Assembly: GCF_032191835.1 (NCBI RefSeq)
Contig: NC_083223.1
Location: 46,438,001 to 46,502,000, forward strand
From: Heteronotia binoei
Taxonomy: Eukaryota
Length of the DNA: 64,000 bases
Direction of reading: 5' to 3'
Shown: positions 9,340 through 34,560 of the stretch, piece after piece
Layout of the letters: every line of letters starts with the position of its first letter
Numbering within the stretch: position 1 is the first letter of the stretch
Notes under the pieces: generated by a model
Seen by the model: the letters and a program-made list of their open reading frames with translations, nothing else
What the model was told of the DNA's origin: nothing
Databases searched by the model: none
Made by a program: the position numbers and the translations under genes

Positions 9340-10803
9340 CTACTTACAGCTCTGAAGTCTGGTTCGATGGTGTTTATCATCTGACAGGAGGTGAATGAAA
9401 GTGTCACTGTAAGAGACTTTGAATCGGTTGCTCCACTGAGGATCTCCCTTTCCTTTTCTTGAAAGATGTGATGGATCATCTTTGGGGCTTCCACTTTTCC
9501 TATCACCAGCATTGAGCTCCATCAGTTCCAGCTCATGCTTGGCTGCTGTCTCTAAAACTCTCTGCTTATTATAATATCTGACAAAGTTGTTGATGATGGG
9601 GTGGATTGGCAGTGCAATGGCTATGACCCCACAAAGGAAACTGATGGCAGCATTGAGTTTCCCTAGCGTGGTCTTTGGATAGATGTCCCCATAGCCCACA
9701 GTAGTCATGGTTATTATTGCCCACCAAAAAGATTGAGGGATGCTCTTGAACAATGTCTCTGGATGATTTTGCTCCATTGTATAACCAAGGGCAGAAAACA
9801 CAAAAATCCCAACAGCTAAATACATCAGCAAAAGCCCCAGCTCCTTAAAGCTCCTCTTAAGAGCATAAGTTAAAGTCTGTAGACCCGAGGAATGGCGTGC
9901 TAGTTTGAAAATCCTTGCAATCCTCATAATTCGGAGTGCTTGGACAGCTTGCTGCATATTGGTTAATTCCATCAATCTGGCACCCAAATGAGTCAATATC
10001 AGGCTAACATAGAAGGGAAGTATTGCAAAAATGTCAATGATGTTCATGAAAGAAAGAGCAAAATGCAGCTTATTAGGAGAGGAGATGAGTCTGAGGATAT
10101 ACTCAAGAGTAAACCAGCCTATGCAAACAGTCTCGATCTTATCCAGTACTGGGTGTTCCACAGCTTTTCCTTCCGAGTCCAGCACCTGAAGTTCTGGGAT
10201 GGTCCCCACACACATCACTACCGATGAGGTTAGGATGAACAGAAAAGACAGGATCGCTGTTACTCGAGCTGGGTAGGAAGATTCTGGTTTTTCCATGAAT
10301 TTCCAAATATATTTTTGGCATTTTTTCCAGCGGTTTTCACAGCTGTCCACTCCCAAGTCATCCAAAATCAACTGGACCCTGTGGGCTATCTCTTCAAGTT
10401 CCTCTTTTTTTTCACTGAGATGAGTTTTGCAGCAGTCATCCAAAAACTTAAGATCCACTTTCCAAAACTCCATTTCATTCTTGAAACAAATGGGACATAT
10501 TCCTTTCTTCATGTGAACCTCCCCAAAGTAATACACGTCAACGATGCATTTGAAAGCGTCAGGATCTCGGTCAAAGTAAAATTCTCTTTTCCCAGGATCG
10601 TAGTCATCACAAAGAGAGAAAATGGTGTCATATCCCCCTGGCAAGCAGTTCATAAGCTCGGCCAGTCTTGTATTTGGGTACTGGCTTAGATGATCACTGT
10701 ACAGCACCTGCTTCACCCCTCCGACATTGACTATAATCTCTATTTCTTCGCTGCTTTCTGACCCATCACTATCCAGATCTTGGAAACTAATGTCATCTGC
10801 CAT
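9340..10803 (-). CDS. KCNF1: Voltage-gated potassium channel modifier subunit Kv5.1, single exon, 487 aa
   Basis: T1 domain (IVNVGG...EFYFDRDPDAF), S4 LRIMRIARIFKLARH, pore TTVGYGD, S6 ALPIHPII and C-terminus HHRTRLQSCK match Kv5.1 as recalled; intact ATG to TAG. Confidence 0.97.
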   Translation of the reverse strand: MADDISFQDLDSDGSESSEEIEIIVNVGGVKQVLYSDHLSQYPNTRLAELMNCLPGGYDTIFSLCDDYDPGKREFYFDRDPDAFKCIVDVYYFGEVHMKKGICPICFKNEMEFWKVDLKFLDDCCKTHLSEKKEELEEIAHRVQLILDDLGVDSCENRWKKCQKYIWKFMEKPESSYPARVTAILSFLFILTSSVVMCVGTIPELQVLDSEGKAVEHPVLDKIETVCIGWFTLEYILRLISSPNKLHFALSFMNIIDIFAILPFYVSLILTHLGARLMELTNMQQAVQALRIMRIARIFKLARHSSGLQTLTYALKRSFKELGLLLMYLAVGIFVFSALGYTMEQNHPETLFKSIPQSFWWAIITMTTVGYGDIYPKTTLGKLNAAISFLCGVIAIALPIHPIINNFVRYYNKQRVLETAAKHELELMELNAGDRKSGSPKDDPSHLSRKGKGDPQWSNRFKVSYSDTFIHLLSDDKHHRTRLQSCK

Positions 10804-11690
10804 TTTAATTTTTATTGCAGCCTTATTTCCGACAGCCTTTCACCCACACACGGAATTTTGTATTGAAGCAGCTTCGCCAGAGCAACTGAGAATCAAGTCA
10901 GCTGTATATTAATAAATCTCTGCTGAGAAGACTGAGCAGGACTCAGAAAGGGTTACAAAAGCAAACCTGCAGGCTGTGAAACCCTGTGAAATATGCCACA
11001 AGCTGCATGCAAGGAAGAGCTGAGGCATCTGGCTGTTTAGAAACAAGAGCAGGGCTGCTTGACAGGAAAGCTGTTGTTCCAACACATTTGGACAAAGCAA
11101 AAAGGGGGGAGGAAACACTTAAAGAAACTCACCCCAGCGCTTGCGATTGTTTTCAGGTTCTCTTTTTTCCCCCTGGCCTTTATTCATTACCAGAGACTCC
11201 TGGACCCTCAAGAAATCCTTTGAATAATGAAAAGTGGATTAACAGTTCAGAGGGGGGAAAGAAAAGGTAGTCCCAACTAGACGCTTGTGATGTCTTGGCT
11301 TCAGAGGCTGACCGGGGAAATCTGTGAAGTTTCTTTGGATATAAAGGTCTCCTCGAGTTTTGCACTGGTTTGTTCTCACAGAGTCCTGAAGCTTGCCAAG
11401 CAACCTGAAGTGTGCTGTTTTAAAGCACAGTAGGAATTCCAACCTGACAAGAACCTTCCACAGTCTACCCTCTTCTGGCGAAATGCTGCAAAAGCATGAG
11501 TTGTGCCGGGGAAAACAGTTAGGTAGTGCAGTGTATGTGTAGATGTACAGTGCAATTTTCTTTTACACCCTGTTCATTTTTAATATGGGTTGTGAGGCGA
11601 GTATACAGCTTTGAAAATGCAAGGAAAAAATGTTCATGGAATTACCATAGATAGATTGGTAAACTACTTAAGGGTCATAGAGACTCGAAG

Positions 11691-14071: not shown

Positions 14072-15510
14072 CAATATGTGTGAAAGAGCCACATGTGGCT
14101 CCTGAACCACAGTTTGGCCACCTCTGCTCTAGCCTTTCTGTTTTGGAAATATTTCTTTCTTCTTATATCTTTGCAAGGAAAGGTAATAGAGATTTACTTT
14201 TTAAAAATGAAAGCGGAGAAGTCAGAGAACCTGCTAAACATATAGTTACAATGGTATATCAGTATAATGATGTTCTGGTGCTGATTTAAACAAACAAATA
14301 AGAAAGCCCCCTGGTTGATGGAGATGGGAGGAAATGGCTGCTACGGGGACAAGGGCAGGAACAATCAGTGCTATGTGGGAAAGAGAACCAAAAGTTTTCC
14401 CATTTGCTTGGCAGCTGTGCAGGATTTACTGTGATCTTTCCCAAAACTTTGAAACAAAAAGGTTTGATAAGTATTGGAGAAAAGCCAGGAAGCAGCAGGA
14501 ATGTGCACAAACGTACTATGATGCCGTGAGGGAGCAGGGAAAAAACCCATTTTCCAACAGCATGAAACCAGTGTGAGTTAGGCAATTTCTGCATAAGTTA
14601 TTTGCCACAAGTTCGATGCTGCAATAGGGCTTATTTTTAAAATCAGCAAGTGACTATCATTATAACAATGTGTCAATCTGGTTCTTTGAATTCCCAGCCC
14701 CTTTTGTTGCCGATATATACCTTTCCCTTCATATCCATACAATGAAAGGAGCTACCGACTTACTTAAAAAAAAAGAAGCTGGGAATTCAGAGAATCTGAT
14801 TCACAATGTTGTAACAATATAGCAACATTTTGAGGCTTGCAGCCTGGTTTGCCTCCCAGGGAGGGTGGAGTCAATATTCGCCCGTTTGGGCGCACAAGGC
14901 TGTGGGCGGGGCCTGGCTGTTTTAACGGCCAGACCTCCGCTCTTCATCATCAGTCCATTGGACGATCGGAGGACATCGGGGGATATATCGTTGGGTTGTT
15001 TGTGTTCACGGAGGCCTCCCTGACTTCGGATGCGTCAGAGGAGCGTTTGGGGGTGGCTACGTGGTTCGGTGGCTGCTGGAGGCTCCGCTGTGTGTTTTTG
15101 GGCTTCCGAAGGCTTTGGGAGAGCGGCGGAAGGCTTGGCGGCGGCAGTGGCTTCTTTGTCGGGCTGAGTGTTTCCCTGGGCTGGAGGGTCTGCCGCGGCT
15201 TTGTTTGGGAAGTTTTCCTGTGAGCCTGGGGTGGTCTGCTCTCCCTTTTTTCCAGTGAGGTGGCTTTGGGGGGTAGGCTGGTGGTCCTAGGTGGGGTAGA
15301 TGCTGATTTTGGCTGTTGGGGGCTGCCTTTCCCTGAAGAGGGTTGGGTGGAGTTGGCCATTTTAAGTACCCTTCTTGTGTAAAGGGTAGCTGCCATTGTG
15401 GTTAAGGACTGGTGAACGGCCATTTTGAGTCCCTCTCTTGTAATAGGGGAGGCAGCCATTTCAGGGAGCTCTTGGAGCGGCCATTTTGTGTGTGCTATTT
15501 GACTGAAAGA

Positions 15511-16857
15511 ATGTCAGGTGGTAAGGGGTCAGGCAGGTCCAAGGGCAAGAAGCCAGTGCCTAAAACGCCTAGGGCTCCTGCTAAGAGGTCTCCACCCCCG
15601 TTATCCTCTTCTGATGAGGAGGGTGATGCAGTAGTAGACGCCAATATTAGACGTAGGTTGCGGGCTTTGGAGCAGGCGTCAGGCATTCCTTCTCCAGGAG
15701 GGGTGGAGGGGGATAGGGACTCTAGGAGGGGGCAGCAAGCTAATATACTAACCAGGCTGTCTATCCTTGAGGGCAGGTCTGGTGGAGTTGTAGCTGACAG
15801 GGATGCTGGTTCCAGTGGTACAGATGTGGGTGCTGTGTCGGCGGCTGAAGCATCTGGAATTGGATCGTCTTTGGTTCCCACTGGAATTGCAGGTAAGTCC
15901 GGGAACAATTGGCAGGCTGGCGTTGGGCAGGCGTGGCCATGGGGACCATGGGGTCCTGCCTTGATGGCTGGGCAGGGTTACCCTTCTGTGAGTGCGGGGG
16001 TGCCTGTTTCCTCTGGGGCGGGGTCCCTGTCAAACTGGGCTTGGCCTAGCGGGCAAGGGGGCCCTTGCGGGGCTTGCGCGGGTGTGGGGCACCCGGGTAT
16101 GGCAGGTTCTCTTATGGGCGCACCTTCTCCTTATGGGATGGTGCCTTTTACATCTTTGCCCTTTGGGAATGTCGCCTTACCGTTAGCGGATCACTTGCTT
16201 TTGGCAACCAGGGAGAAAATCCTGAAAGGGGAGTACGTTGACATATTTTATCTGCTCTTTCAAGAGTTGGAGAAAAAAGATAAGGAGGAGTTGGATGAGA
16301 AGGCGAAGGAGAAATTAAAAAAGTGAAAGGTGGATAGGACCTGGGCAAATTGGCTCCTGGGGGGTTGTATTTATGCCGGGGCGATTGCCCCGGCACAGCT
16401 TTGGCGGGCAGCTGCCCTTTTCCAATATTTGGATATAATTTATAAGGTCTATACGACATTTAGCGGCCCTGCCTGGTTACAGTATGATCAGGAATTTCAG
16501 ATGAGGGCTGCCCTGTATCCGTTTCTTCAGTGGGACTGTATCCATCAGCAGCTGTGGCTGCAGGTCATGTCCCTGGCTAGGCCTAACTTGGGTGATCGCT
16601 CAGATAGCGGTCACCTGGTGAGCAGGTCATCCACAACATCTTTGACTTCATCAGGCTCTCCCCGCGGTTCAGCAGGGCAGGCAGTTCAACCCCACTTGCT
16701 CTGCTGGGAATTTGGCTCTCTGGGAGTGTGTAGCAGGAAGGCTTGCCAGTTCAAGCATGAATGCCTTTTGTGTGGTGGGTCCCACTCCTTTGACAGCTGC
16801 CCCAGAGCTCGGGGACATAAGAATGCAAAGAAGCCTGGTGGGGGTGGAGGATCCTAA
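15511..16857 (+). pseudogene. Ngaro gag-like ORF1
   Basis: ATG at 15511; one in-frame TGA at 16324 (likely CGA>TGA); DIRS-group gag motifs (ILKGEYVDIF, WLQYDQEFQMRAA) and C-terminal CCCH plus CCHC zinc fingers (CWEFGSLGVCSRKACQFKHECLLCGGSHSFDSC). Confidence 0.85.
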
Positions 16858-18471
16858 CAAGCTAAAAAAGGGGTCCAGCCCAGTAAGGGTGGGGCCTCTT
16901 GAGCATTGGTTGTCAAGTTACCCTCAAAGGGCGGACAGTTTGTATTTGTTGGAAGGTTTTAAAGTTGGTTTTAGGATCCCTTTTCGGGGGTCCCGAGTCC
17001 CATTTATGTCTGGGAACCTTAAGTCAGTTAAGGGCTTGGAACAGGTTGTTAGAGACAAGATTACCAAGGAGTTGGCGGAGGGCAGGATCTTGGGTCCTTT
17101 TTTACAACCTCCAGTGGGTAATCTTAGGGTCTCGCCATTGGGCATGGTGCCGAAAAAGGCGCCTGCTGAATTTCATTTGATTCACCATCTCTCCTTCCCC
17201 AGGGGGAAGTCTGTGAATGATGGGATTCCAAAGCACTTATGCTCAGTTAGGTATACCAGCCTCGACCAGGCGGTAGCCGTGGTGAGACGCTGCAGGGTGG
17301 GCGCAGAGTTGGCAAAATGCGATATTAAGTCTGCATTTCGCCTTCTACCAGTGCATCCCGATAATTTCGAGCTTCTGGGGTTTTCTTTTGAGGGCCAGTT
17401 TTACATGGATAGAGCATTGCCTATGGGCTGCTCTGTATCATGTTCCACTTTCGAGTGTTTCAGCACATTGTTGGAATGGGCTGTGCGGGAGAAAGTGGGT
17501 TTACAGGGTGTCGTTCATTATTTGGATGACTACCTGTTTGTGGGTCCCAAGGGGACTGGGCATTGTGCGCAGCTGCTGTCTGGCTTTATAGAGCTGGCGG
17601 CGGAGCTTGGGGTCCCTTTGGCTCCAGAGAAAACGGAGGGTCTGACCCAAAAGTTGACATTTTGGGGGATTGAAATTGATACTGTGGTGCAGCTGTCCAG
17701 GTTACCTCTTCAAAAGATAATTGAGTTGAGGGCTAGGATTTCTGCCTTTCTTTTTAAAAAGAAGGTTACCTTCTTAGAGTTGCAGCAGTTAGTGGGGCAT
17801 CTCAACTTTGAGTGCAAAGTGGTTGCTCCAGGGAGGGCTTTTCTTAGAAGGCTCTGTGATGCTATGGCAGGGTTACGCTTGCTTCAGCATAGAACACAGG
17901 TTACCTGCAGCATGAGGGATGATTTGAGGGTTTGGCAGGAATTTTTGGAGTCCTTCAATGGAGTCTCCTTCTGGAGAGAGGACTTGAAGCTTGAAGCTGA
18001 GCTCCAGGTTATGTCTGATGCTGCAGGGTCTTTGGGTTTTGGAGTCTATTTCCGCAGACATTGGTGCGCGGAGGTTGGCCTGACTCCTGGATACAGGTAG
18101 GTGTGAACCGAGACCTTACGTTTCTCGAGTTCTTTCCCATTTTAGTCGCGGTTTGGCTTTGGGGGAAGGATATGGCCAATCACACTGTTCATTTTTGGTG
18201 TGATAATATGCCGTTGGTCCATGTCATTAATTCCCTTTCATCCAAATCCCGGCGGGTTATGAGGTTGGTGAGGGCCTTCACTCTGCGTTGTTTGCGGCTT
18301 AATATTTTGTTTTTAGCCAAGCATGTTCCTGGGGTGAGTAACGGGGTGGCTGACACTCTCTCTTGTAAACAGACAGAGAGGTTTCGTCAGCTGGCCCCAG
18401 ATGCCAACAGAGAGACAGTGCCAATGCCCCAGGAGCTATGGCTGATTGGAGAGCCGAGGCCTGCAGAGTGA
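16712..18471 (+). pseudogene. Ngaro reverse transcriptase / RNase H
   Basis: Motifs DIKSAFRLLPV, LPMG, HYLDDYLF; RNase H SDAAGSLGFG, FLEFFPI, WCDN, HVPGVSNGVADTLS; frameshift near 18076. Confidence 0.92.
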
Positions 18472-19353
18472 TAGGCCTAGCCATTGCGCCTAGCACCAGG
18501 AAGTCTTACAAACGGGCTGTGCGGCAGTTTGAAGACTTTAGGGCTGAGGTAGGGTACCGCATTGTTTGGCCATTCCCGGTGGAGCAGTTGCTCCACTACT
18601 GTGTTTTGCTTCGAGGTAAGGGATTGGCCGTGTGATCCATTAGGGGGCGCTTGTCTGCACTGGCTTTTGTCAGTAAGGTGCTGGGTTATAGGGAGGAAAC
18701 AGCTGATTTTCATATTTGAAAGATGCTGGAGGGGTGGGCCAGAGAGGCCGGACCCCGGGCAAATACGCGGAATTCTATGTCTCCATCGATTCTGCGGGAT
18801 TTGAAGGGGATTTGGGGTGTGGTGTGTACTTCTTCTTTTGAAGCATGTTTGTTCCATTCCGCGTCTTTGGTAGCCTTTTTTGGGGCCCTTAGAGTCAGCG
18901 AGCTGGTGGCACAGTCCAGAAACAATGTTTCTGGTAAAGCTCTGTTGTTAGGGGACCTGAAGCTATCTGAGGGTAAGGCAGTCATTACTGTCCATCGCTC
19001 TGAGATGGATCAGTTGCAGAAAGGTACCATACTTGAGTTGCGTAGTTGTTCAGAGCTTGAGCTGTGTCCAGTTGCTGCGTTGGCTGCTTATTTGGCAGTC
19101 TGGGGGCTCAAGGAGGGGTTTTTGTTTTGCCATTATGATGGTAGCCCGTTGACGAAACATCAGTTTTGGGCGGTGACGTCACGGGCTTTAGGTGAGCTGG
19201 GGTTGGCTAGGGTGCGGTTTGGGACCCACTCCTTTACGATTGGGGCAGGCTTGACAGCTGCCGCCATGGGGTATCCTTCCTCCTCCATTCAGCACTTGGG
19301 CCGTTAGCATTCGACGGCCTACATCTTATGTTCGACCGTTCCTCAGGCCTTAA
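18438..19353 (+). pseudogene. Ngaro tyrosine recombinase
   Basis: APSTRKSY N-terminal motif, AFFGALRVSEL, HSFTIG (normally HSFRIG), LGR*...SYVR; several stops and a frameshift. Confidence 0.9.
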
Positions 19354-19410
19354 GTAGCTTGTTTGTTGCGCTGTTTGGTTATGTTCTCGTTTAACTGTTT
19401 TTTCTCTTTA

Positions 19411-20013
19411 GATACTGTTGTTCCTGGCCAGAGGAACCGAGTTCTCGTCTGTGGCCATAGCCACGTGTTTTGGGCCGCTCATCAGGCGCGGAGAACTTTG
19501 GTCGGCTCTCAGCTGGGACTCAGCCAACATGTTTATATTGAATGGTGGGGGTGCCGGGGCCTTCAGTGACTGGGCCTGCTGCCCTTGTTATTTCAAGATA
19601 GTGTGGGTCCTCCTCCTCAGGTTTTAATTGTTCACCTGGGAGGCAATGATCTAGGGCTTTTAAAGGGCAAGGCCTTAGTTTGGCAGACCTGAGATGATTT
19701 TCAGTATATTAGGGAGTGATGGCCAGGGACCACTATAATTTGGTCAGCCATGCTGCCCCGCCTTGTTTGGTGCTGTGCTTGGGACCCTGCAGCTATTGAG
19801 AGGGCCTGGTATAAGGCTAATAAGGAGTTTAAGAAGGTATTGGAAAGGGGGTTGGGCCATTATCTGCCCCATCTGAACATTTCGTCGAAATTTCCTGACC
19901 TCTACAGAGGGGATGGGGTGCATCTCTCAGAAAAGGGTAATAGGCTTTTCCTGAGAGATTTGCGGCAGGGGTTGTGGGGGGCTTTGGGCGTCCCGGTAGG
20001 CGCTAAGCCCTAA
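19411..20013 (+). pseudogene. SGNH/GDSL hydrolase ORF of the Ngaro element
   Basis: One frame with blocks VCGHSH (I), GCRG (II), HLGGNDL (III), GDGVHL (V); three in-frame TGA at 19567, 19690, 19717; no ATG at its start. Confidence 0.85.
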
Positions 20014-20793
20014 GTAGAGACTTGGCCTTAGTAGTGGCAGGTTTTTGTGGTTTAGGGCACTATGCAGCTGGGGGAGAACTGTGAAGCATCCCCCTTTTAA
20101 GGAATTAGGGGTCTGGCATGATCAACCTTGGGGTTTGGTGACCCGGGGTGTGGCGAATGCAGACCGTCCTGGAGGCTTGACTAGAGGGTGCCTTTCCGTC
20201 GAGATGTGCGTCTGGGTTTGGGCCCTCTGGTGTGTGCCTCCCTGCTGAGCCTGCCTGGTGGGAGCTGAGTCACACAGCTCCAACTAAGGGGCTGGGTCTC
20301 TCGCCCGCTAATGGCAGGGGAGCAGTCTCGGTGACCCCTAGCCCTGGCCAGGCCGCTGGTTGGGTGCCCTTGCTATTTATTATGATATTTAATAAAGTGG
20401 CCCAATTTTATACCAATGTATTGTGTCTGACTCTTTATTCTGACCTTGGGGGGCAATCAATTTCCAATGTAAGATTAAAAGTGAAAAAGACAAGTAGTAC
20501 AGAGGGAGGGGAATTCCAGGATACTCAAGGGAGGAAAAATGCAAGGAAATCTTTCATGTAAAAGCATCATTTGTGCTGTATCAGCAACCACATCAGCAAC
20601 AGAGAAATCACATAAGCCTCTTCCTGTGTGGAAAACACCATATTCCAGTAGGCATACACCATAAGATGTCTTATTTCTACTTGCTTATGATGACATTTTT
20701 ATTCTTATTTTATAAATAAACTGATTAAACATGCAAATCCAAACATACAATATTGATATATATAAAAATTTGACTGAAAGCTTTTAAAGGGAG

Positions 20794-20981: not shown

Positions 20982-21222
20982 AAAGGGAGATTCTGATATC
21001 AAATATATAAACATATCTTGTTAAAAAAATTGCAGCAAAAGGCACAATGTTATAATGGTATTTGATCACATGATATAATGGTATTTCCTTCTAATCAAGG
21101 GTACATTGTACAAGCTTTGGATCTGTGCTTTGTTTCTATCGTACAACCAAAAGGTTCAAAACTTGGGGCAGGGGAAACAAGGGGCTCATTGGAACTTCTA
21201 CATTGACATTAAGCAATGAGAA

Positions 21223-23323
21223 CGGGACGAAGCAATGAGAACATCCTACAGAACGTTTATGAAGTCTTATGAGATGGCAGTCAAGGCTGCAAAGAAAGAT
21301 TACTTTGCAACCAAGATTGCATCTGCAAACTCGTGCCCAGCACAATTATTTAGAATAATTGGGGATCTTATAACGCTGCCACAAGGCAAACCAAATGTTA
21401 GAGAATTAGAAATAGGCTGTGAGGCATTTGCAAGATATTTTGCAGATAAAATCTCGTTGCTCCGCCAAGACCTGCCTACCACCTTGGACACAGTGAGTGA
21501 AATTGAGGCTCCGTGCCTGTCTTCGGGTTTAGTGCTGGACCACTTCGACCCACTCAGCCTGGAGGAAGTCGACAGAATCCTCTCTGCTGCTCGCCCGACA
21601 ACATGTGATCTGGACCCTTGCCCCTCTTGGCTGATTAAATCTTGCCAGGGGGAGCTTAGATGTCCTTTACGGGACATCATAAACAGGTCCCTCTTAGAGG
21701 GGCACTTTCCAACACCTCTGAAAGAGGCCTTGGTCCGCCCTCTCTTGAAAAAAGCTACAGCAGACCCGGCCGAATTGGCGAACTACCGACCGGTGTCTAA
21801 CTTACCGTTTTTAGGTAAAATTATTGAGAGGGCCGTGGCGTTGCAGCTTCAGAGGTTTCTGGATGACGCTTCTGTCCTGGACCCATGTCAGTCAGGCTTC
21901 CGGCCGGGCCATGGGACGGAGACGGTGTTGGTCGCCTTGGTAGATGACCTCCAACGGCAACTGGATCGAGGCGGCGTTGCGGTGCTGATGTTGTTAGATC
22001 TGTCGGCTGCATTTGATACAGTCGACCATCGGCTACTGACGCGCCGCCTCGCCGACATTGGGGTTGAGGGGTCGGCCTTGCAATGGCTTTCCTCCTTCCT
22101 CCTGGGTCGGGGACAGAGGGTGGCTATTGGGGGGGAACGGTCCCGGAGGCGCACACTGGATTGTGGGGTGCCTCAGGGAGCAGTGCTCTCCCCGATGTTG
22201 TTCAACATCTATATGCGCCCCCTTGCCCAGATTGCCCAGCGGTTTGGGCTGGGTTGCCATCAATATGCAGATGACACCCAGCTCTCTCTACTAATGGACG
22301 GCTGGCCCGACCCCGCACCAGGGAATCTCGACTGGGCCTTACAGGCTGTTGCGACATGGCTCAGGCTGAGTGGGCTGAAGCTGAACCCAGCGAAGACAGA
22401 GGTTCTTTGCGTGGGTCGCGGCGCTCTGGGAAGGGAAATAGCTCTCCCGGCCTTCGATGGTGCGCTATTGAAAGCGGCGCACCAGGTAAAGAGCCTGGGT
22501 GTTTTACTGGAGCCTTCATTATCGATGGAGGCCCAGATAGCAGCCACTGCCAAGTCAGCATTCTTTCATCTGAAGCGGGCAAGGCAGTTGGCCCCTTTCC
22601 TTGAGCGCCGGGACCTCGCAACAGTGATCCACGCAACGGTCACCTCAAGACTAGACTACTGTAACGCCCTCTACTTGGGGCTACCTCTGTGCCAGACTCG
22701 GAGACTGCAGCTAGTGCAGAACGCGGCGGCCAGGCTGTTGTTGGGACTCCCAAAACGGGAACATATACGGCCGGGGCTCCGAGAACTGCACTGGCTGCCG
22801 ATTATATACTGGGTCCAGTACAAAGTGTTGGTCATCACCTTTAAAGCCTTATATGGCCGAGGACCTGCCTACCTGAGGGACCGTCTTTCCCCATATGAAC
22901 CCCAGAGAGCACTGAGGTCAGTTGGGAAAAATCTAATGACCATCCCTGGGCCGAAGGAGATTAAATACCAGAACACTAGAGCACAGGCATTCTCAATCGC
23001 GGCCCCTACCCTGTGGAACCGACTCCCCGAGGAGGTGCGGGCCCTGTGGAACCTCGATCAGTTCCGCAGGGCCTGCAAGACCGTCCTTTTTAAACTTGCA
23101 CACTTGGACTGCTAGGAAGATCGGTAACTAAGATCTGCCAATGCAGTTTGAAGATCTATACCGCCGAATAACTGTACTTATTAGATTGGTTCTTAATAAC
23201 AAGTTTATTGTTAATGTTTTATATTGTTAAATATAAAGGCTTTTATCCATTATTGTATGTTCCCATAAAATGTTGTTAGCCGCCCTGAGCCTGCCGAGGT
23301 GGGGAGGGCGGGATAGAAATAAA

Positions 23324-29100: not shown

Positions 29101-29459
29101 NATGGGAGAACTGTTACTTTTGGAGGGAACTGTTACTTTTGGAGGGAAGCTGAACAAGCCAAAGCTTGTACTCCACACCAGGGTTCCAGAGAAGGCCTAA
29201 GCGTGCCCAATCAGGGGAAGGATTGAAACATAAGTAGCCAATTAACATCTAGGCTCATACTGTACCCTGATAGGCCCTTAGGCCCCTGTAAATAGCCAAT
29301 CCATGTACATAGTTAAGGACCAATCAGAAGGGGGCAAGAATTGTATAAAGGAGCGGGAGGTTTGAATAGAGCTCAGTCTGTGTTGTGTTCCTGAAGTAAA
29401 GCTTGCTGAAATCACTCTCCGACTCTGGTCTCTTACTGCGTCGACCCCAGTACTTTACA
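29101..29459 (+). mobile_element. 5' LTR of a Gypsy-type element (start hidden in gap)
   Basis: Several CCAAT boxes, TATAAA near 29344, AGTAAA near 29396, ends ...ACTTTACA; rejoins the PBS at 32598 once the L2 is removed. Confidence 0.75.
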
Positions 29460-32375
29460 CAGATACACAAGAGAAGGAGACAGAGACAAAACGGTGCTCG
29501 GCCACCTTCTAGTCTACTTCCCATCCCAACGGTGGTAGGTAGTGGGACCAAGAGGAAATGCCCGTCTCCGTCACTGGTGTTATGCAACGCCAGGTCTATT
29601 AACAACAAGACCTCGACCCTCAAGGAGTTTCTACTCCAACAGGATGTGGACCTGGCTTGCGTGACCGAGACCTGGGTGCGGGACGGAGAGACAGTAGCTC
29701 TCTCCCAGATGACCCCCCCAGGCTACTCGGTCTTTCACCAGTCACGGAATAACGGGCGGGGGGGAGGGGTAGCGTTGTTCATACGGGAGGATTACACCTT
29801 TCGGGCTCTCCCGGCTCCAAGGATCGATGGCATTGAATGTGCCGGCCTGACGTGGGATGTTGGAGAGGGGTTGGCGATCTGGCTGGTGTACCGTACGCCC
29901 AACGCACCAGCCAGCGCCTTACCATCACTATTGGAGGCAGTGGCGGGCTGGGCATTGGAGTTCCCGGGGCTTATGGTCCTGGGTGACTTCAATGTCCATG
30001 CCGATGACACGGCCTCCACTCAGGCGATGGACCTAGTGTCTTCCATGGCGACACTGGGGCTCTCTCAATTTGTCACAACTCCCACGCATCAGGCCGGGCA
30101 CACATTAGACCTGATCTTTGCATCCGGGATTTTGGTGAACGATATCGCGGCTGAAGCGGTTCCATGGTCGGACCACCTAGCCCTTAAGGCCCGTATGGAG
30201 ACGTTGCCCCAACCCTGTATGGGCGGAGAGCCTATTTTGGCTCGCCCCCGGGGCTTGATGGACCCGGAACGGTTCCAAACAGCCCTGAGGGATCCCTGGC
30301 CCACTGGCAATTCTCTCGATGACCTGGTGGAAGTCTGGCAGGGCCAGCTATCCAGGGCTATCGATGAAATTGCACCTCGGCGCCCTCTGCGCCCTCGCAA
30401 GAGGCTGGCACCATGGTATACCTTGGAGTTACGCCAGCTGAAACAAGGGCTCAGACGACTAGAGAGACGGTGGAGGCATACTCGGGACGAAGCGACGAGA
30501 ACATCCTATAGAACGCTTATGAGGTCTTATGAGATGGCAGTCAAGGCTGCAAAGAAAGAATACTTCGCAGCCAAGATTGCATCTGCAAAATCGCGCCCAG
30601 CACAATTGTTTAGAGTAATTGGAGATCTTATAACATTGCCACAAGGCAAACCAAATATTAGGGAATTAGAAATAGGCTGTGAGGCATTTGCGAAATATTT
30701 TGCAGATAAAATCTCATCGCTCCGCCAAGACCTGCCTATCACATTAGACACAGTAAGTGAAACTGAGGCTCCGCGCCTGTCTTCAGATTTAGTACTGGAC
30801 CACTTCGACCCACTCAGCCTGGAGGAAGTCGATGGAATTCTCTCTGCTGCTCGCCCAACAACATGTGATTTGGACCCTTGCCCCTCTTGGCTGATTAAAT
30901 CCTGCCAGAGGGAGCTTAGATGTCCTCTACGGGACATCATAAATAGATCCCTCTTAGAGGGGCATTTTCCAGCGCCTCTGAAAGAGGCCTTGGTCCGGCC
31001 CCTCTTGAAAAAACCTACAGCAGACCCGGCCGAATTGGCAAACTACCGACCGGTGTCCAATTTACCATTTTTAGGTAAAATTATCGAGAGGGCAGTGGCG
31101 TTACAGCTACAGAGATTTCTAGATGACGCTTCTGTCTTAGACCCGTGCCAGTCTGGCTTCCGACCGGGCCACGGGACGGAGACGGTCCTGGTCGCCTTGG
31201 TGGACGACCTCCAGCGGCAACTGGATCGAGGCGGTGCGGCAATACTGATGTTACTAGATCTGTCGGCTGCGTTTGATACAGTCGACCATCGGTTGCTGAT
31301 CCACCGCCTCGCCGACATAGGGGTTGAGGGGCTAGCCTTACAATGGCTTTCCTCCTTCCTCATGGGTCGGGGACAGAGGGTGGCGATTGGGGGTGAGCGA
31401 TCCCAGAGGCGCACACTAGACTGTGGGGTGCCCCAGGGAGCAGTTCTCTCCCCGATGTTATTCAACATCTATATGCGCCCCCTCGCCCAGATTGCCCGGA
31501 GATTTGGGCTGGGTTGCCATCAATACGCAGATGACACCCAGCTCTATCTACTAATGGACGGCCGGCCCGCCTCCGCCCCGGGGAACCTGGATCGGGCTTT
31601 GCGGGCTGTTGCAACGTGGCTTAGACTGAGTGGGCTGAAGTTAAATCCAGCGAAGACAGAGGTTCTCCATGTGGGTCGTGGCACTCTGGGGAAGGAAATA
31701 TCTCTCCCGGCCTTTGACGAGGCGCCGCTGAAGACGGCGCAGCGGGTAAAGAGCCTGGGCGTCTTACTGGAGCCTTCATTATCAATGGAGGCCCAGATAA
31801 CAGCCACTGCCAAATCAGCCTTCTTCCACCTGAGGCGGGCGAGGCAGCTGGCCCCTTTCCTAGAGCGTCAGGACCTAGCAATGGTGATCCACGCGACGGT
31901 CACCTCAAGATTGGACTACTGTAACGCTCTCTACATGGGGCTGCCTCTGTACCGGACCCGGGAGCTGCAGCTAGTGCAGAACGCGGCGGCCAGGCTGCTA
32001 CTTGGTCTCCCAAGATGGGAGCATATACGGCCAGGGCTGCGCGGACTGCACTGGCTGCCAATCGTATACCGGATCCAGTACAAAGTGCTGGTCATAACCT
32101 TTAAAGCCCTATATGGCCAAGGACCGACCTACCTGAGGGACCGTCTCTCCCCATATGAGCCCCAGAGAGCACTGAGGTCAGTGGGGAAAAGCAGACTGAA
32201 TATCCCTGGGCCAAAAGAAGTTAAACTTCAAAGCACCCGCACCCGGGCCTTTTCTGTTGCGGCCCCACAACTCTGGAACCAACTCCCAGAGGAGGTGCGG
32301 GCCCTGCGGAACTTAGACCAGTTCCGCAGGGCCTGCAAGACCGCCCTCTTCAAACAGGCGTTCACCAATAACTGA
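29403..32375 (+). CDS. L2 ORF2 (AP endonuclease + reverse transcriptase), 990 codons without a stop; the first about 20 codons are LTR-derived
   Basis: LCNARSINNK, CVTETW, GGGVALF, VLGDFNVH, GHTLDL, WSDH (APE); YRPVSNL, QSGFR, GVPQG, YADD (RT). Track start is TTG, not ATG. Confidence 0.85.
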   Translation: MLKSLSDSGLLLRRPQYFTQIHKRRRQRQNGARPPSSLLPIPTVVGSGTKRKCPSPSLVLCNARSINNKTSTLKEFLLQQDVDLACVTETWVRDGETVALSQMTPPGYSVFHQSRNNGRGGGVALFIREDYTFRALPAPRIDGIECAGLTWDVGEGLAIWLVYRTPNAPASALPSLLEAVAGWALEFPGLMVLGDFNVHADDTASTQAMDLVSSMATLGLSQFVTTPTHQAGHTLDLIFASGILVNDIAAEAVPWSDHLALKARMETLPQPCMGGEPILARPRGLMDPERFQTALRDPWPTGNSLDDLVEVWQGQLSRAIDEIAPRRPLRPRKRLAPWYTLELRQLKQGLRRLERRWRHTRDEATRTSYRTLMRSYEMAVKAAKKEYFAAKIASAKSRPAQLFRVIGDLITLPQGKPNIRELEIGCEAFAKYFADKISSLRQDLPITLDTVSETEAPRLSSDLVLDHFDPLSLEEVDGILSAARPTTCDLDPCPSWLIKSCQRELRCPLRDIINRSLLEGHFPAPLKEALVRPLLKKPTADPAELANYRPVSNLPFLGKIIERAVALQLQRFLDDASVLDPCQSGFRPGHGTETVLVALVDDLQRQLDRGGAAILMLLDLSAAFDTVDHRLLIHRLADIGVEGLALQWLSSFLMGRGQRVAIGGERSQRRTLDCGVPQGAVLSPMLFNIYMRPLAQIARRFGLGCHQYADDTQLYLLMDGRPASAPGNLDRALRAVATWLRLSGLKLNPAKTEVLHVGRGTLGKEISLPAFDEAPLKTAQRVKSLGVLLEPSLSMEAQITATAKSAFFHLRRARQLAPFLERQDLAMVIHATVTSRLDYCNALYMGLPLYRTRELQLVQNAAARLLLGLPRWEHIRPGLRGLHWLPIVYRIQYKVLVITFKALYGQGPTYLRDRLSPYEPQRALRSVGKSRLNIPGPKEVKLQSTRTRAFSVAAPQLWNQLPEEVRALRNLDQFRRACKTALFKQAFTNN

Positions 32376-32597
32376 ATTAATGTTTACCGCCAGATTAGTA
32401 ACGTTTACCGCCAATGTTGACTTAGGAATGTTTTAATTAATTATTGATTATTGACTGATTTTAATGTGAATTTTAATGTGAATTTAATGTTTTTATTACT
32501 ATTGTTTACCTGAAATGCTGTTAGCCGCCCTGAGCCTGCTTCGGCGGGGAGGGCGGGATATAAATAAAATTTTACATTACATTACATTACATTACAC
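29461..32597 (+). mobile_element. L2 LINE with complete ORF2, no ORF1 or 5' UTR
   Basis: APE and RT domains, 3' stem-loop CCGCCCTGAGCC...GGGAGGGCGG, (ATTAC)n tail; TTACAC at both junctions. Confidence 0.93.
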
Positions 32598-32615
32598 TGG
32601 CGACGAGGATGGGAT
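32598..32615 (+). promoter_or_regulatory. Primer-binding site complementary to tRNA-Ser(GCU) 3' end
   Basis: TGGCGACGAGGATGGGAT is the reverse complement of ATCCCATCCTCGTCGCCA (recalled tRNA-Ser GCU end). Confidence 0.8.
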
Positions 32616-32719
32616 GCCAGTAAGAACCAGCAACAGAACCAGGAACACGGAAAGGTGGCTAAATCCAAGCCATCTGGGTCCGCACCTCCGCTCTGCGCAC
32701 ACCCCATCTCGCAAGCCGC

Positions 32720-34560
32720 CCGGAAAGACGAACTATCCACCCACAAAGGCTGCCTACTATGGGGCAACAGAGTCGTCATCCCCAAACCCTTGCAAGACCA
32801 AGTGCTTAGAGCCCTGCATGAGGCACACCCGGGCATAGTCCGCATGAAGGCTCTCGCACGGAGCTATGTCTGGTGGCCCGGCCTCGATGCAGAAATTGAG
32901 GCTTGGGTTAAAAGGTGCCCAACATGCCAGGTGTCAAGGCCTGACCCCCCACGTGGCCCAGTGCAACCATGGGAATCCACCAAAACCCCCTGGTCAAGAC
33001 TGCATATGGACTTTGCTGGCCCCTTCCATGGGCGGACTCTACTCATACTAGTGGATTCATACTCCAAGTGGTTGGAGGTGGTCCAGGTGCCCTCGCCATC
33101 ATCGCAGGTGACCATCACGGCTCTGAGGGCCATCTTTGCAACCCACGGGTTGCCGGAGACCATCGTCACCGACAACGGCACAGCATTCATGTCCACAGTG
33201 TTCCAGGACTTCTTAGCCAGGAACCTCATCAGGTACATTCGCTCTGCCCCGTTCCATCCAGCCACCAACGGCCAGGCAGAGCGGATGGTGCGCACGGCAA
33301 AGGAGGCCTTGAACCGTCTGGGCCCCTCAGACTGGCCAAAAGACTTGGCGTGTTTCCTAATGGCCTACCGGACTACACCCACCGCCTCCACAGGTCGCAG
33401 TCCAGCTGAACTCCTCATGGGCCGCCGCATCACCACCCTGCTGGACAAGCTGCACCCTGACCGAGCCCCAGACAGGCGACCGGCGCCGGAACACCTTAAA
33501 GCCCCCAGAGGGTTCTACCCAGGTGAGACAGTGTGGGCACGGAACTATGCCACCACTGGCCCCGCCTGGCTCCCTGGAAAGGTGGACCACGTCACCGGAC
33601 CGGTTGTCGTGCCTGCCCCAGACCCAGCCCTTGCTAACTCAGAGCAGGAGCCACCTGAAACTGATCAGGCCACACCGGGCCCTAGCTCAGCCCCCGCCCT
33701 TGCTAACTCAGAGCAGGAGCCACCTGAAACTGATCAGGCCACACCAGGCCCTAGCGCATCCCCTCCTGAATCACCACCTCCTGTAAGCCGGCTACGGGAG
33801 AGGAGGCGACAGGAGTTCAGAAACAGACGGAAAAATGCACGCATGCGTGGGAGGAGAGATCTCAGCCCGGAGTACTAACAAGTTAACAAGCCAGCACAGT
33901 ATATCTGTAACCCTGACCTCAAGGCAAACTGTGCTGGCAACGAATGACCCTCCTGGGACGTGACTACGCTCTGCAACCTCTTGCTTGCTGCGAGAACCCG
34001 TGTAACTCCTGACCCGGCCTGAACCTTGGACTTGAACTTCTGGACTCTGACTTTGCTTTGTGGACTGACCAAGGTAATTGGCGTTGTTTTCTCTGGCTTC
34101 CGACCCCCTGCATTCCTGTGACCAAGCTTTCTGTCTCCTCCTTCGGCCGGACTGATTTACGGTGTTGAAATAATTGGACTGTTTAACGACCACCCCTGCG
34201 CTCCTCCCCAGCCGGCTGACAGAGTTCTGGCCAGCTGCCGGACGTTGGCAGCCGTCGTTCCTTATCTGCAACCCGGGCCCTGACACCGGTCTCCTATGCA
34301 GTGACCTTGGAGGGTGGATATCTCCTGAGGCGACACATCGACCAACTCCGTGGTCGCCTGCCTGCCGGGGAGCCAAGGTCAGAGGCTCCTGCACACGCAC
34401 GGCTGGCCTCCCCAGCCCCCGTCGGACACCCGGAACTCCAGAAGCCCTCGCGCAAGTGTGACTGGCCTCCCCAGACCCCGCTGGACACCTGGAGCTCCGG
34501 AGGCCCCTGCGCACTCACAGCTAGCCTCTCCAAAGCCTGCCAGTCAGCGGGGGAAGCTGC
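32720..34560 (+). pseudogene. Gypsy integrase split by a solo LTR
   Basis: HHCC finger (LHEAHPG...CPTC), DDE core (HMDFAGP, TDNG, NGQAERMV); the C-terminus VTGP|VSYAVTLEGGYLLRRHIDQLR resumes in frame at 34291. 3' end approximate. Confidence 0.88.
33605..34285. mobile_element. Solo LTR (681 bp) of a second LTR family
   Basis: Starts TGTCGTG, ends CCTGACA; perfect 5-bp TSD CCGGT (33600-33604, 34286-34290); 69-bp internal tandem duplication 33627-33755. Confidence 0.88.

Follow-up and report, generated by a model that had tools for sequence, protein, structure and literature searches.

How can a hydrolase be produced when its open reading frame (ORF) lies last in a retrotransposon, behind those for all the other element proteins? 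The question is raised by a window of 64,000 nucleotides (nt) from the gecko Heteronotia binoei (contig NC_083223.1, forward-strand positions 46,438,001 to 46,502,000), in which positions are counted below from the first letter. An element extending from approximately 14841 to 20458 contains gag, a reverse transcriptase/RNase H (RT/RH) ORF, a tyrosine recombinase (YR) ORF, and an SGNH hydrolase ORF. It represents a Ngaro retrotransposon of the kind that bears an SGNH hydrolase, in a copy that has decayed. Very probably, active copies of such elements splice the N-terminal part of Gag (Gag-N, approximately 125 residues) onto the esterase via a subgenomic RNA. This is likely because of what is directly observed: the splice sites, their phases, their conservation in divergent families, and matching gene models in databases.

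The order of ORFs, from gag through RT/RH to YR, is that of Ngaro retrotransposons (order DIRS). The window copy retains only the A1 repeat and a single B repeat. The B1-A2-B2 end is present in seven of the 69 family loci fetched, and the complete A1-B1-A2-B2 arrangement, with repeats 99–100% identical, in three of the five young loci tested (L073, L081, and L083). The split direct repeats in the family and in young loci therefore identify a Ngaro element. The genome contains many copies of it, with 2401 candidates for the acceptor region, 40 of which were scored. The assignment was made by ORF order, repeats, and domains; no match to a methyltransferase domain was found among the window ORFs. 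Several Ngaro families are very young in this genome, with unbroken ORFs and 99–100% identical repeats (L073, L074, L081, L082, L083, L101, L106, and others). The window copy itself is dead and cannot make the full fusion protein, because TGA codons interrupt gag (16324), YR (18633, 18717, and 19305), and the hydrolase (19567, 19690, and 19717).

A first-pass annotation of the window had predicted the Gag-N/SGNH join from a donor at 15892/15893 and an acceptor at 19411/19412 preceded by TTTAAC at 19390, both in phase 1, and these coordinates hold in the sequence. The donor, GCAG/GTAAGT, lies 382 nt past the gag ATG, that is, 127 codons plus one nucleotide, and is the sole CAG/GTAAGT among 15 donor-like sites listed in 14800–20500. 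In 47 other copies of the family (12 loci were dropped as duplicates of others or of the window) the site reads GTAAG in 36 cases, GTAGG in seven, GTAAA in three, and TTAAG in one. To judge from these copies, conservation of the donor exceeds chance, because GT is kept in 46 of the 47 and the T at +2, a four-fold degenerate Gly position, is invariant in all 48 sequences. Only two of the 118 four-fold degenerate positions of gag, this T included, are conserved at a level of at least 99%. At the other end of the predicted intron, the acceptor AG is kept in 38 of the 39 family copies covering it, a figure inflated by the choice of these copies with a query that spanned the acceptor.

Other Ngaro families were represented by 40 of the 150 genome places matching the Eublepharis hydrolase, picked to span open-frame lengths and forming 14 clusters at 85% identity. 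The acceptor is YAG in 39 of the 40 loci (one has CAA) and stands in phase 1 in all of them; a branch-like motif lies 17–22 nt upstream in 39 loci, and the tract contains on average 13.3 pyrimidines of 17. The W-P-W motif of gag is recognizable in 30 loci (10 were not assessable), and 29 of these have a phase-1 donor 29–41 nt before it. In all eight intact gags, G/GTAAG or G/GTAGG occurs at codon 122–133, and elsewhere only at codon 11 of two gags. The Gly-Lys/Arg pair at the junction is encoded by GGT-A(A/G)G in nine of nine cases, compared with four of 47 other such pairs. Between clades, the exon-1 proteins are 29–40% identical and the C-terminal halves of Gag 60–76%. The families share ancestry and these counts are not independent; the point is retention of the sites while their flanks diverged, not independent origins. 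Donor, acceptor, and phase, whose conservation the first-pass annotation had proposed to check, are retained both in the family copies and in the divergent Ngaro families of the genome.

The same join is observed in database gene models. A protein search with an unbroken hydrolase returned 21 proteins, nine of which are models of 325–347 amino acids (aa) with a Gag-like N-terminus. A profile search, from which the best 150 of 2425 matches were considered, was complemented by 30 look-ups for species names. Among the matches listed, Gag-N/SGNH fusion models were named for eight squamates: Heteronotia binoei, Eublepharis macularius, Anolis carolinensis, A. sagrei, Elgaria multicarinata, Pogona vitticeps, Rhineura floridana, and Hemicordylus capensis. 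This range includes geckos, iguanians, anguimorphs, one amphisbaenian, and one cordylid. The RefSeq model P0003 (XP_060111014.1) matches locus L108 at 100%, with residues 1–126 extending to GAG/GTAGGT and residues 128–277 starting from TTTTAG/AT. Paired models of a full Gag and a fusion protein are near-identical up to Gly-Lys or Gly-Glu and then diverge. An example is provided by the Anolis pair P0045/P0038, identical at 127 of 128 positions up to the breakpoint; others are Eublepharis P0043/P0016, Hemicordylus P0048/P0061, and Eublepharis P0044/P0013, in which the breakpoint was read from the sequences, the automatic alignment having overrun it. Two further candidate pairs, P0046/P0071 and P0042/P0004, were rejected because their members are too divergent for a breakpoint to be recognized, and P0203/P0206 because its automatic alignment extended beyond the breakpoint. 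Several of the fusion and Gag models are labelled as isoforms, and in the NCBI pipeline such a label usually implies transcript evidence. Together with the conservation described above, the join in models from eight squamates and the L108 match support the predicted splice.

Besides the selection of the acceptor set and the shared ancestry of the families, several points weigh against splicing. Of 43 family copies, only 21 have an ATG-to-donor distance in phase 1. Gag-breaking indels are present in the remaining 22 (18 have stops in exon 1, and four stop at 147–155 codons), and all nine family copies with a gag frame of at least 250 codons from the ATG are in phase 1. The RefSeq fusion models are predictions, P0003 departs from the element after residue 277, and in nine models the hydrolase is preceded by fragments of YR or of gag-C (P0015, P0093, P0099, P0117, P0131, P0133, P0161, P0172, and P0177). 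An ATG in frame with the hydrolase stands upstream of the acceptor in the window copy, in 16 of the 40 other-family loci, and in 22 of the 39 copies of the family, 19 of which have it at −30. Finally, approximately 460 exon-2 starts in the genome included no intron-less DNA copy.

The search for intron-less copies relied on patterns of exon-2 starts without the normal acceptor, which gave one, zero, and two matches. The single match of the first search was rejected as a LINE-like (long interspersed nuclear element) sequence abutting the exon, and the two later ones as TAG-to-AAG point changes. Set beside intact acceptors, these are zero exceptions versus 152 and two point mutants versus 307; the two exon-start patterns alone mark 152 and 307 genome places. 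Among 30 loci retrieved with an exon-1 query, none joins gag to 19412, and the internal deletions in L041, L049, and L054 break elsewhere. Any spliced RNA would therefore be copied back rarely or never. Packaging or priming signals within the intron would fit the missing intron-less copies, but a lack of splicing would predict the same.

The in-frame ATG would also suit a free hydrolase, translated from a nearby start, either because ribosomes reinitiate past the stop of YR or because an internal promoter is used, with the splice-like signals being incidental. The first-pass annotation had described the SGNH ORF as lacking an ATG, which is incorrect: one is found at 19381–19383, 27 nt after the YR stop, with no stop before the acceptor. 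It had further named an in-frame ATG as an observation that would contradict splicing; such an ATG is indeed present in the window copy, but it is not conserved among copies and families. In the family, the upstream ATG is out of frame in eight and absent in nine of 39 copies, and three of the six copies with an unbroken hydrolase frame (197–199 aa) do not have it. In 24 of the 40 other-family loci, unbroken young ones included, no in-frame ATG precedes the catalytic Ser, and the position of the ATG varies (22–68 codons or more). Because Met is the residue following the GHS motif in 28 of the 40 loci, a protein begun at the next ATG would lack the catalytic Ser. Models P0012, P0022, and P0017, which start near the hydrolase, agree with a free protein, but such a start leaves the conserved tract, branch motif, and donor unexplained, and we consider it improbable. 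The bases directly 3' of the acceptor (19412–19414) form an out-of-frame ATG in nearly all family copies and ATA in the window; the same position is GTG in other families, so that the family ATG looks incidental.

There is even less chance that a genuine acceptor serves mainly donors other than that of gag, within YR or in host exons, and that the databases show the Gag-N join through an error of annotation. Such a use would agree with the models in which the hydrolase is joined to YR, to pieces of gag-C, or to N-termini of unrelated origin, and with the missing intron-less copies. It is contradicted by the Gly-Lys or Gly-Glu breakpoint, which recurs in four pairs of models representing three genera, and by conservation of the donor at a synonymous position. 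In P0089, P0060, P0057, P0140, and P0160, the SGNH exon stands after or inside apparently unrelated host N-termini, which suggests that the strong hydrolase acceptor may have been captured by host genes.

Programmed frameshift or readthrough from the preceding ORF would fit the hydrolase frame being open for approximately 60 codons upstream, overlapping the end of YR, in many family copies, and the overlapping ORFs described for Xenopus in PMC9210276, but it is very unlikely and is rejected for passage from YR to the hydrolase, because the spacer between the YR stop and the acceptor (47–95 nt) falls in all three frames (12, 10, and 15 of 37 measurable loci), the YR-to-hydrolase spacers have no slippery heptamer in common at any one position, and the upstream open stretch is only 19–21 codons in several families.

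Frameshifting is more alive for YR than for the hydrolase; it was proposed for YR by Poulter and Butler (2015), whom PMC13003380 quotes as calling it "probable" for overlapping downstream ORFs. The element contains a second candidate acceptor, at 18372/18373 before YR, which, like the death of the window copy, goes beyond the first-pass annotation. It overlaps the A-D-A-L-S-R-x-Q motif of RNase H and lies 22 codons before the YR ATG (18438). Its CAG is kept in all 34 assessable other-family loci (six were not assessable) and in 25 of the 28 family copies with the motif (11 were not assessable). In Xenopus models, one common N-terminal exon is joined either to SGNH (P0120 and P0206) or to YR (P0202, P0203, P0205, and P0207), and the YR models enter YR 22 codons before its Met, in the same register as in the window. 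P0117, P0131, and P0177 enter the YR frame at the same register. No similarity was found between the Xenopus N-terminal exon and gecko Gag, and none of seven matches was a full Xenopus Gag starting with this exon; the exon may be taken as Gag-N by its position only. Gag-N/YR splicing from the same donor is probable, but less sure than Gag-N/esterase splicing, because the acceptor overlaps RNase H, its tract is weak, and its CAG doubles as the RNase H Gln codon (in RT, 54 of the 73 codons for Gln are CAG). Moreover, an ATG of its own is available to YR in most cases.

For RT, the picture is less regular. Among 51 copies, most have phase-1 YAG sites clustered 59–71 nt before K-G-P-S-P, but the sites do not coincide at a single homologous base; they have weak tracts and overlap gag Ser/Arg codons. 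Many of the young copies L071–L106 have an ATG in the RT frame 28–29 codons before K-G-P-S-P, formed by the His codon of the gag zinc knuckle. This ATG at the gag/RT overlap could be an internal RT start; the window family mostly lacks it.

The hydrolase belongs to the SGNH/GDSL family, as judged by the block I Ser, block III Asn, and block V Asp-x-x-His and by a modeled flavodoxin-like fold. Across the 40 loci, GHS is retained in 36, GxND in 39, and DG(V/I)H in all 40. Unbroken family copies match Lipase_GDSL_2 with E-values from 1e-6 to 7e-5, below the curated cut-off; P0038 passes the Pfam cut-off, and three family copies do not. A structure model of a fusion protein from the database has a mean pLDDT of 62.6, mostly 65–87 in the esterase part and mostly <60 in the N-terminal part. 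In Foldseek, it is most similar to SGNH hydrolases, PAF-AH among them (E approximately 5e-7); the ZfL2-1 esterase (PDB 4c1b) matches by fold at rank 44 (E = 1.3e-5) and weakly by sequence (E = 0.39). The predicted exon 1, 63% identical to the N-terminal part of P0003, has a basic N-terminus, two predicted helices, and a disordered linker; in the model of P0004, these helices are H37–54 and H76–92, with low pLDDT. When the N-terminal helices of Gag were modeled as a two-copy complex, the score was 0.03, which is not informative either way.

Based on these data, three fates of the element RNA can be proposed: (i) unspliced full-length RNA would provide the full Gag and the copied genome, (ii) joining of the gag donor to the hydrolase acceptor would remove approximately 3.5 kb and yield a Gag-N/esterase of approximately 325 aa, and (iii) joining of the same donor to the YR acceptor would remove approximately 2.5 kb and yield Gag-N/YR. 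The purpose of the fusion is more doubtful. The likeliest possibility, held with less than even confidence and drawn by analogy with ZfL2-1 ORF1p, is that the enzymes are loaded into Gag assemblies and membranes, the basic N-terminus and two amphipathic Gag helices bringing the esterase into Gag/RNA assemblies. The order of parts would then be that of the esterase-bearing non-LTR (long terminal repeat) ORF1p, namely coiled coil, basic peptide, and esterase, and splicing would determine the ratio. More generally, we lean slightly toward a one-donor, several-acceptor programme extending from frogs to lizards, in which the Gag-N exon would be joined to the esterase or YR, perhaps also to RT, and this Gag-derived tag would load each enzyme into the particle, replacing the assumed frameshifting.

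Table 1. Features of the Ngaro element in the analyzed window
Feature	Positions	Strand	Remarks
A1 split direct repeat (5' element end, minimum length)	14841..14969	+	Found again as A2, flanked by B1 and B2, in L012, L014, L016, L019, L020, L024, L027
Gag-like ORF1	15511..16857	+	ATG 15511; broken by TGA at 16324; unbroken 449-aa counterpart in L012
Shared first exon, coding part (predicted)	15511..15892	+	Gag residues 1–127 plus 1 nt; frame open
5' splice site CAG/GTAAGT, phase 1	15890..15898	+	Cut 15892/15893; encodes Gly-Lys in gag
RT/RNase H ORF	16646..18471	+	+1 frame relative to gag; RVT_1, E = 1.8e-10; frame broken near 18070; within the predicted intron
Candidate second 3' splice site	18350..18372	+	CTGAC...CAG, cut 18372/18373; phase 1 in YR frame
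Tyrosine recombinase (YR) ORF	18438..19353	+	Own ATG 18438; Phage_integrase, E = 0.0056; broken
In-frame ATG	19381..19383	+	30 nt before the acceptor, no stop between; polymorphic among copies
Hydrolase 3' splice site	19390..19411	+	Branch-like TTTAAC 19390–19395, pyrimidine tract, TAG/A at 19411/19412; phase 1
SGNH hydrolase exon	19412..20013	+	Motifs GHS, GGND, DGVH; TGA at 19567, 19690, 19717
B repeat	20028..20458	+	AATAAA at 20391; window copy without A2-B2

In the 5' leader upstream of gag, the window copy also contains a donor-like site with an acceptor-like tract ahead of it (15239–15256). Approximately 4 kb upstream of the element, a 499-codon open frame on the minus strand (9343–10839) with BTB_2 and Ion_trans domains corresponds to a host gene for a voltage-gated potassium channel. 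Neighboring mobile elements on the plus strand are represented by a LINE RT frame of 631 codons (21220–23112), an unbroken 991-codon endonuclease and RT frame (29400–32372), and the integrase frame of an LTR element (32568–33875).

A full-text literature search returned no account of splicing as the expression route of the Ngaro hydrolase or recombinase; outside its scope were supplements, among them those of PMC9210276 with Ngaro transcripts of possible relevance, as well as Repbase and Goodwin and Poulter (2004), either of which could refer to splicing. Spliced subgenomic RNA is known in other retroelements, and its proposed use for a Gag-N/esterase in Ngaro would be a variant of this. For the expression of overlapping ORFs in DIRS and Ngaro elements, the splice map gives exact junctions that can be counted in existing RNA-seq data. 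It would also redefine the protein to be studied as a Gag-N/esterase of 320–360 aa instead of a 200-aa ORF, and would explain many "uncharacterized" RefSeq genes of lizards and frogs as transposon splice products. The scheme points to convergence with two known systems, retroviral env splicing and the esterase-bearing ORF1p of LINEs.

Spliced subgenomic RNAs produce env in retroviruses and gypsy, and the gag RNA of copia. As in retroviruses and LTR elements, one genomic RNA of Ngaro would combine a 5' donor with a downstream acceptor so as to skip pol, part of the full-length RNA remaining unspliced. The differences are that approximately 125 Gag residues, not a few codons, would be carried over and that the 3' exon encodes an esterase. 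Moreover, Ngaro elements do not have LTRs, a protease, or a DDE integrase, and here a second acceptor may serve the recombinase.

DIRS-53_XT and DIRS-54_XT are Ngaro-like elements with a fourth, SGNH-hydrolase ORF (PMC9210276), and they agree with the element described here in the order gag, RT/RH, YR, SGNH and in the A1-B1-A2-B2 repeats. That paper, in which "splic" and "intron" do not occur, regards the hydrolase as an ORF in its own right that overlaps its neighbor and whose function is unproven, whereas here it looks like a second exon of gag. PMC9210276 and PMC6681497 describe the hydrolase as having unknown function. In the ZfL2-1 ORF1p, as described in PMC3905857, the coiled coil dimerizes, the esterase binds liposomes, and hydrolysis has been shown; these are features of ZfL2-1, the Ngaro protein being known here from sequence and models. 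In ZfL2-1 ORF1p and in the predicted Ngaro fusion alike, the SGNH esterase follows an N-terminal part that is basic and helical, but in ZfL2-1 the fusion is one continuous ORF, whereas in Ngaro it would arise by splicing.

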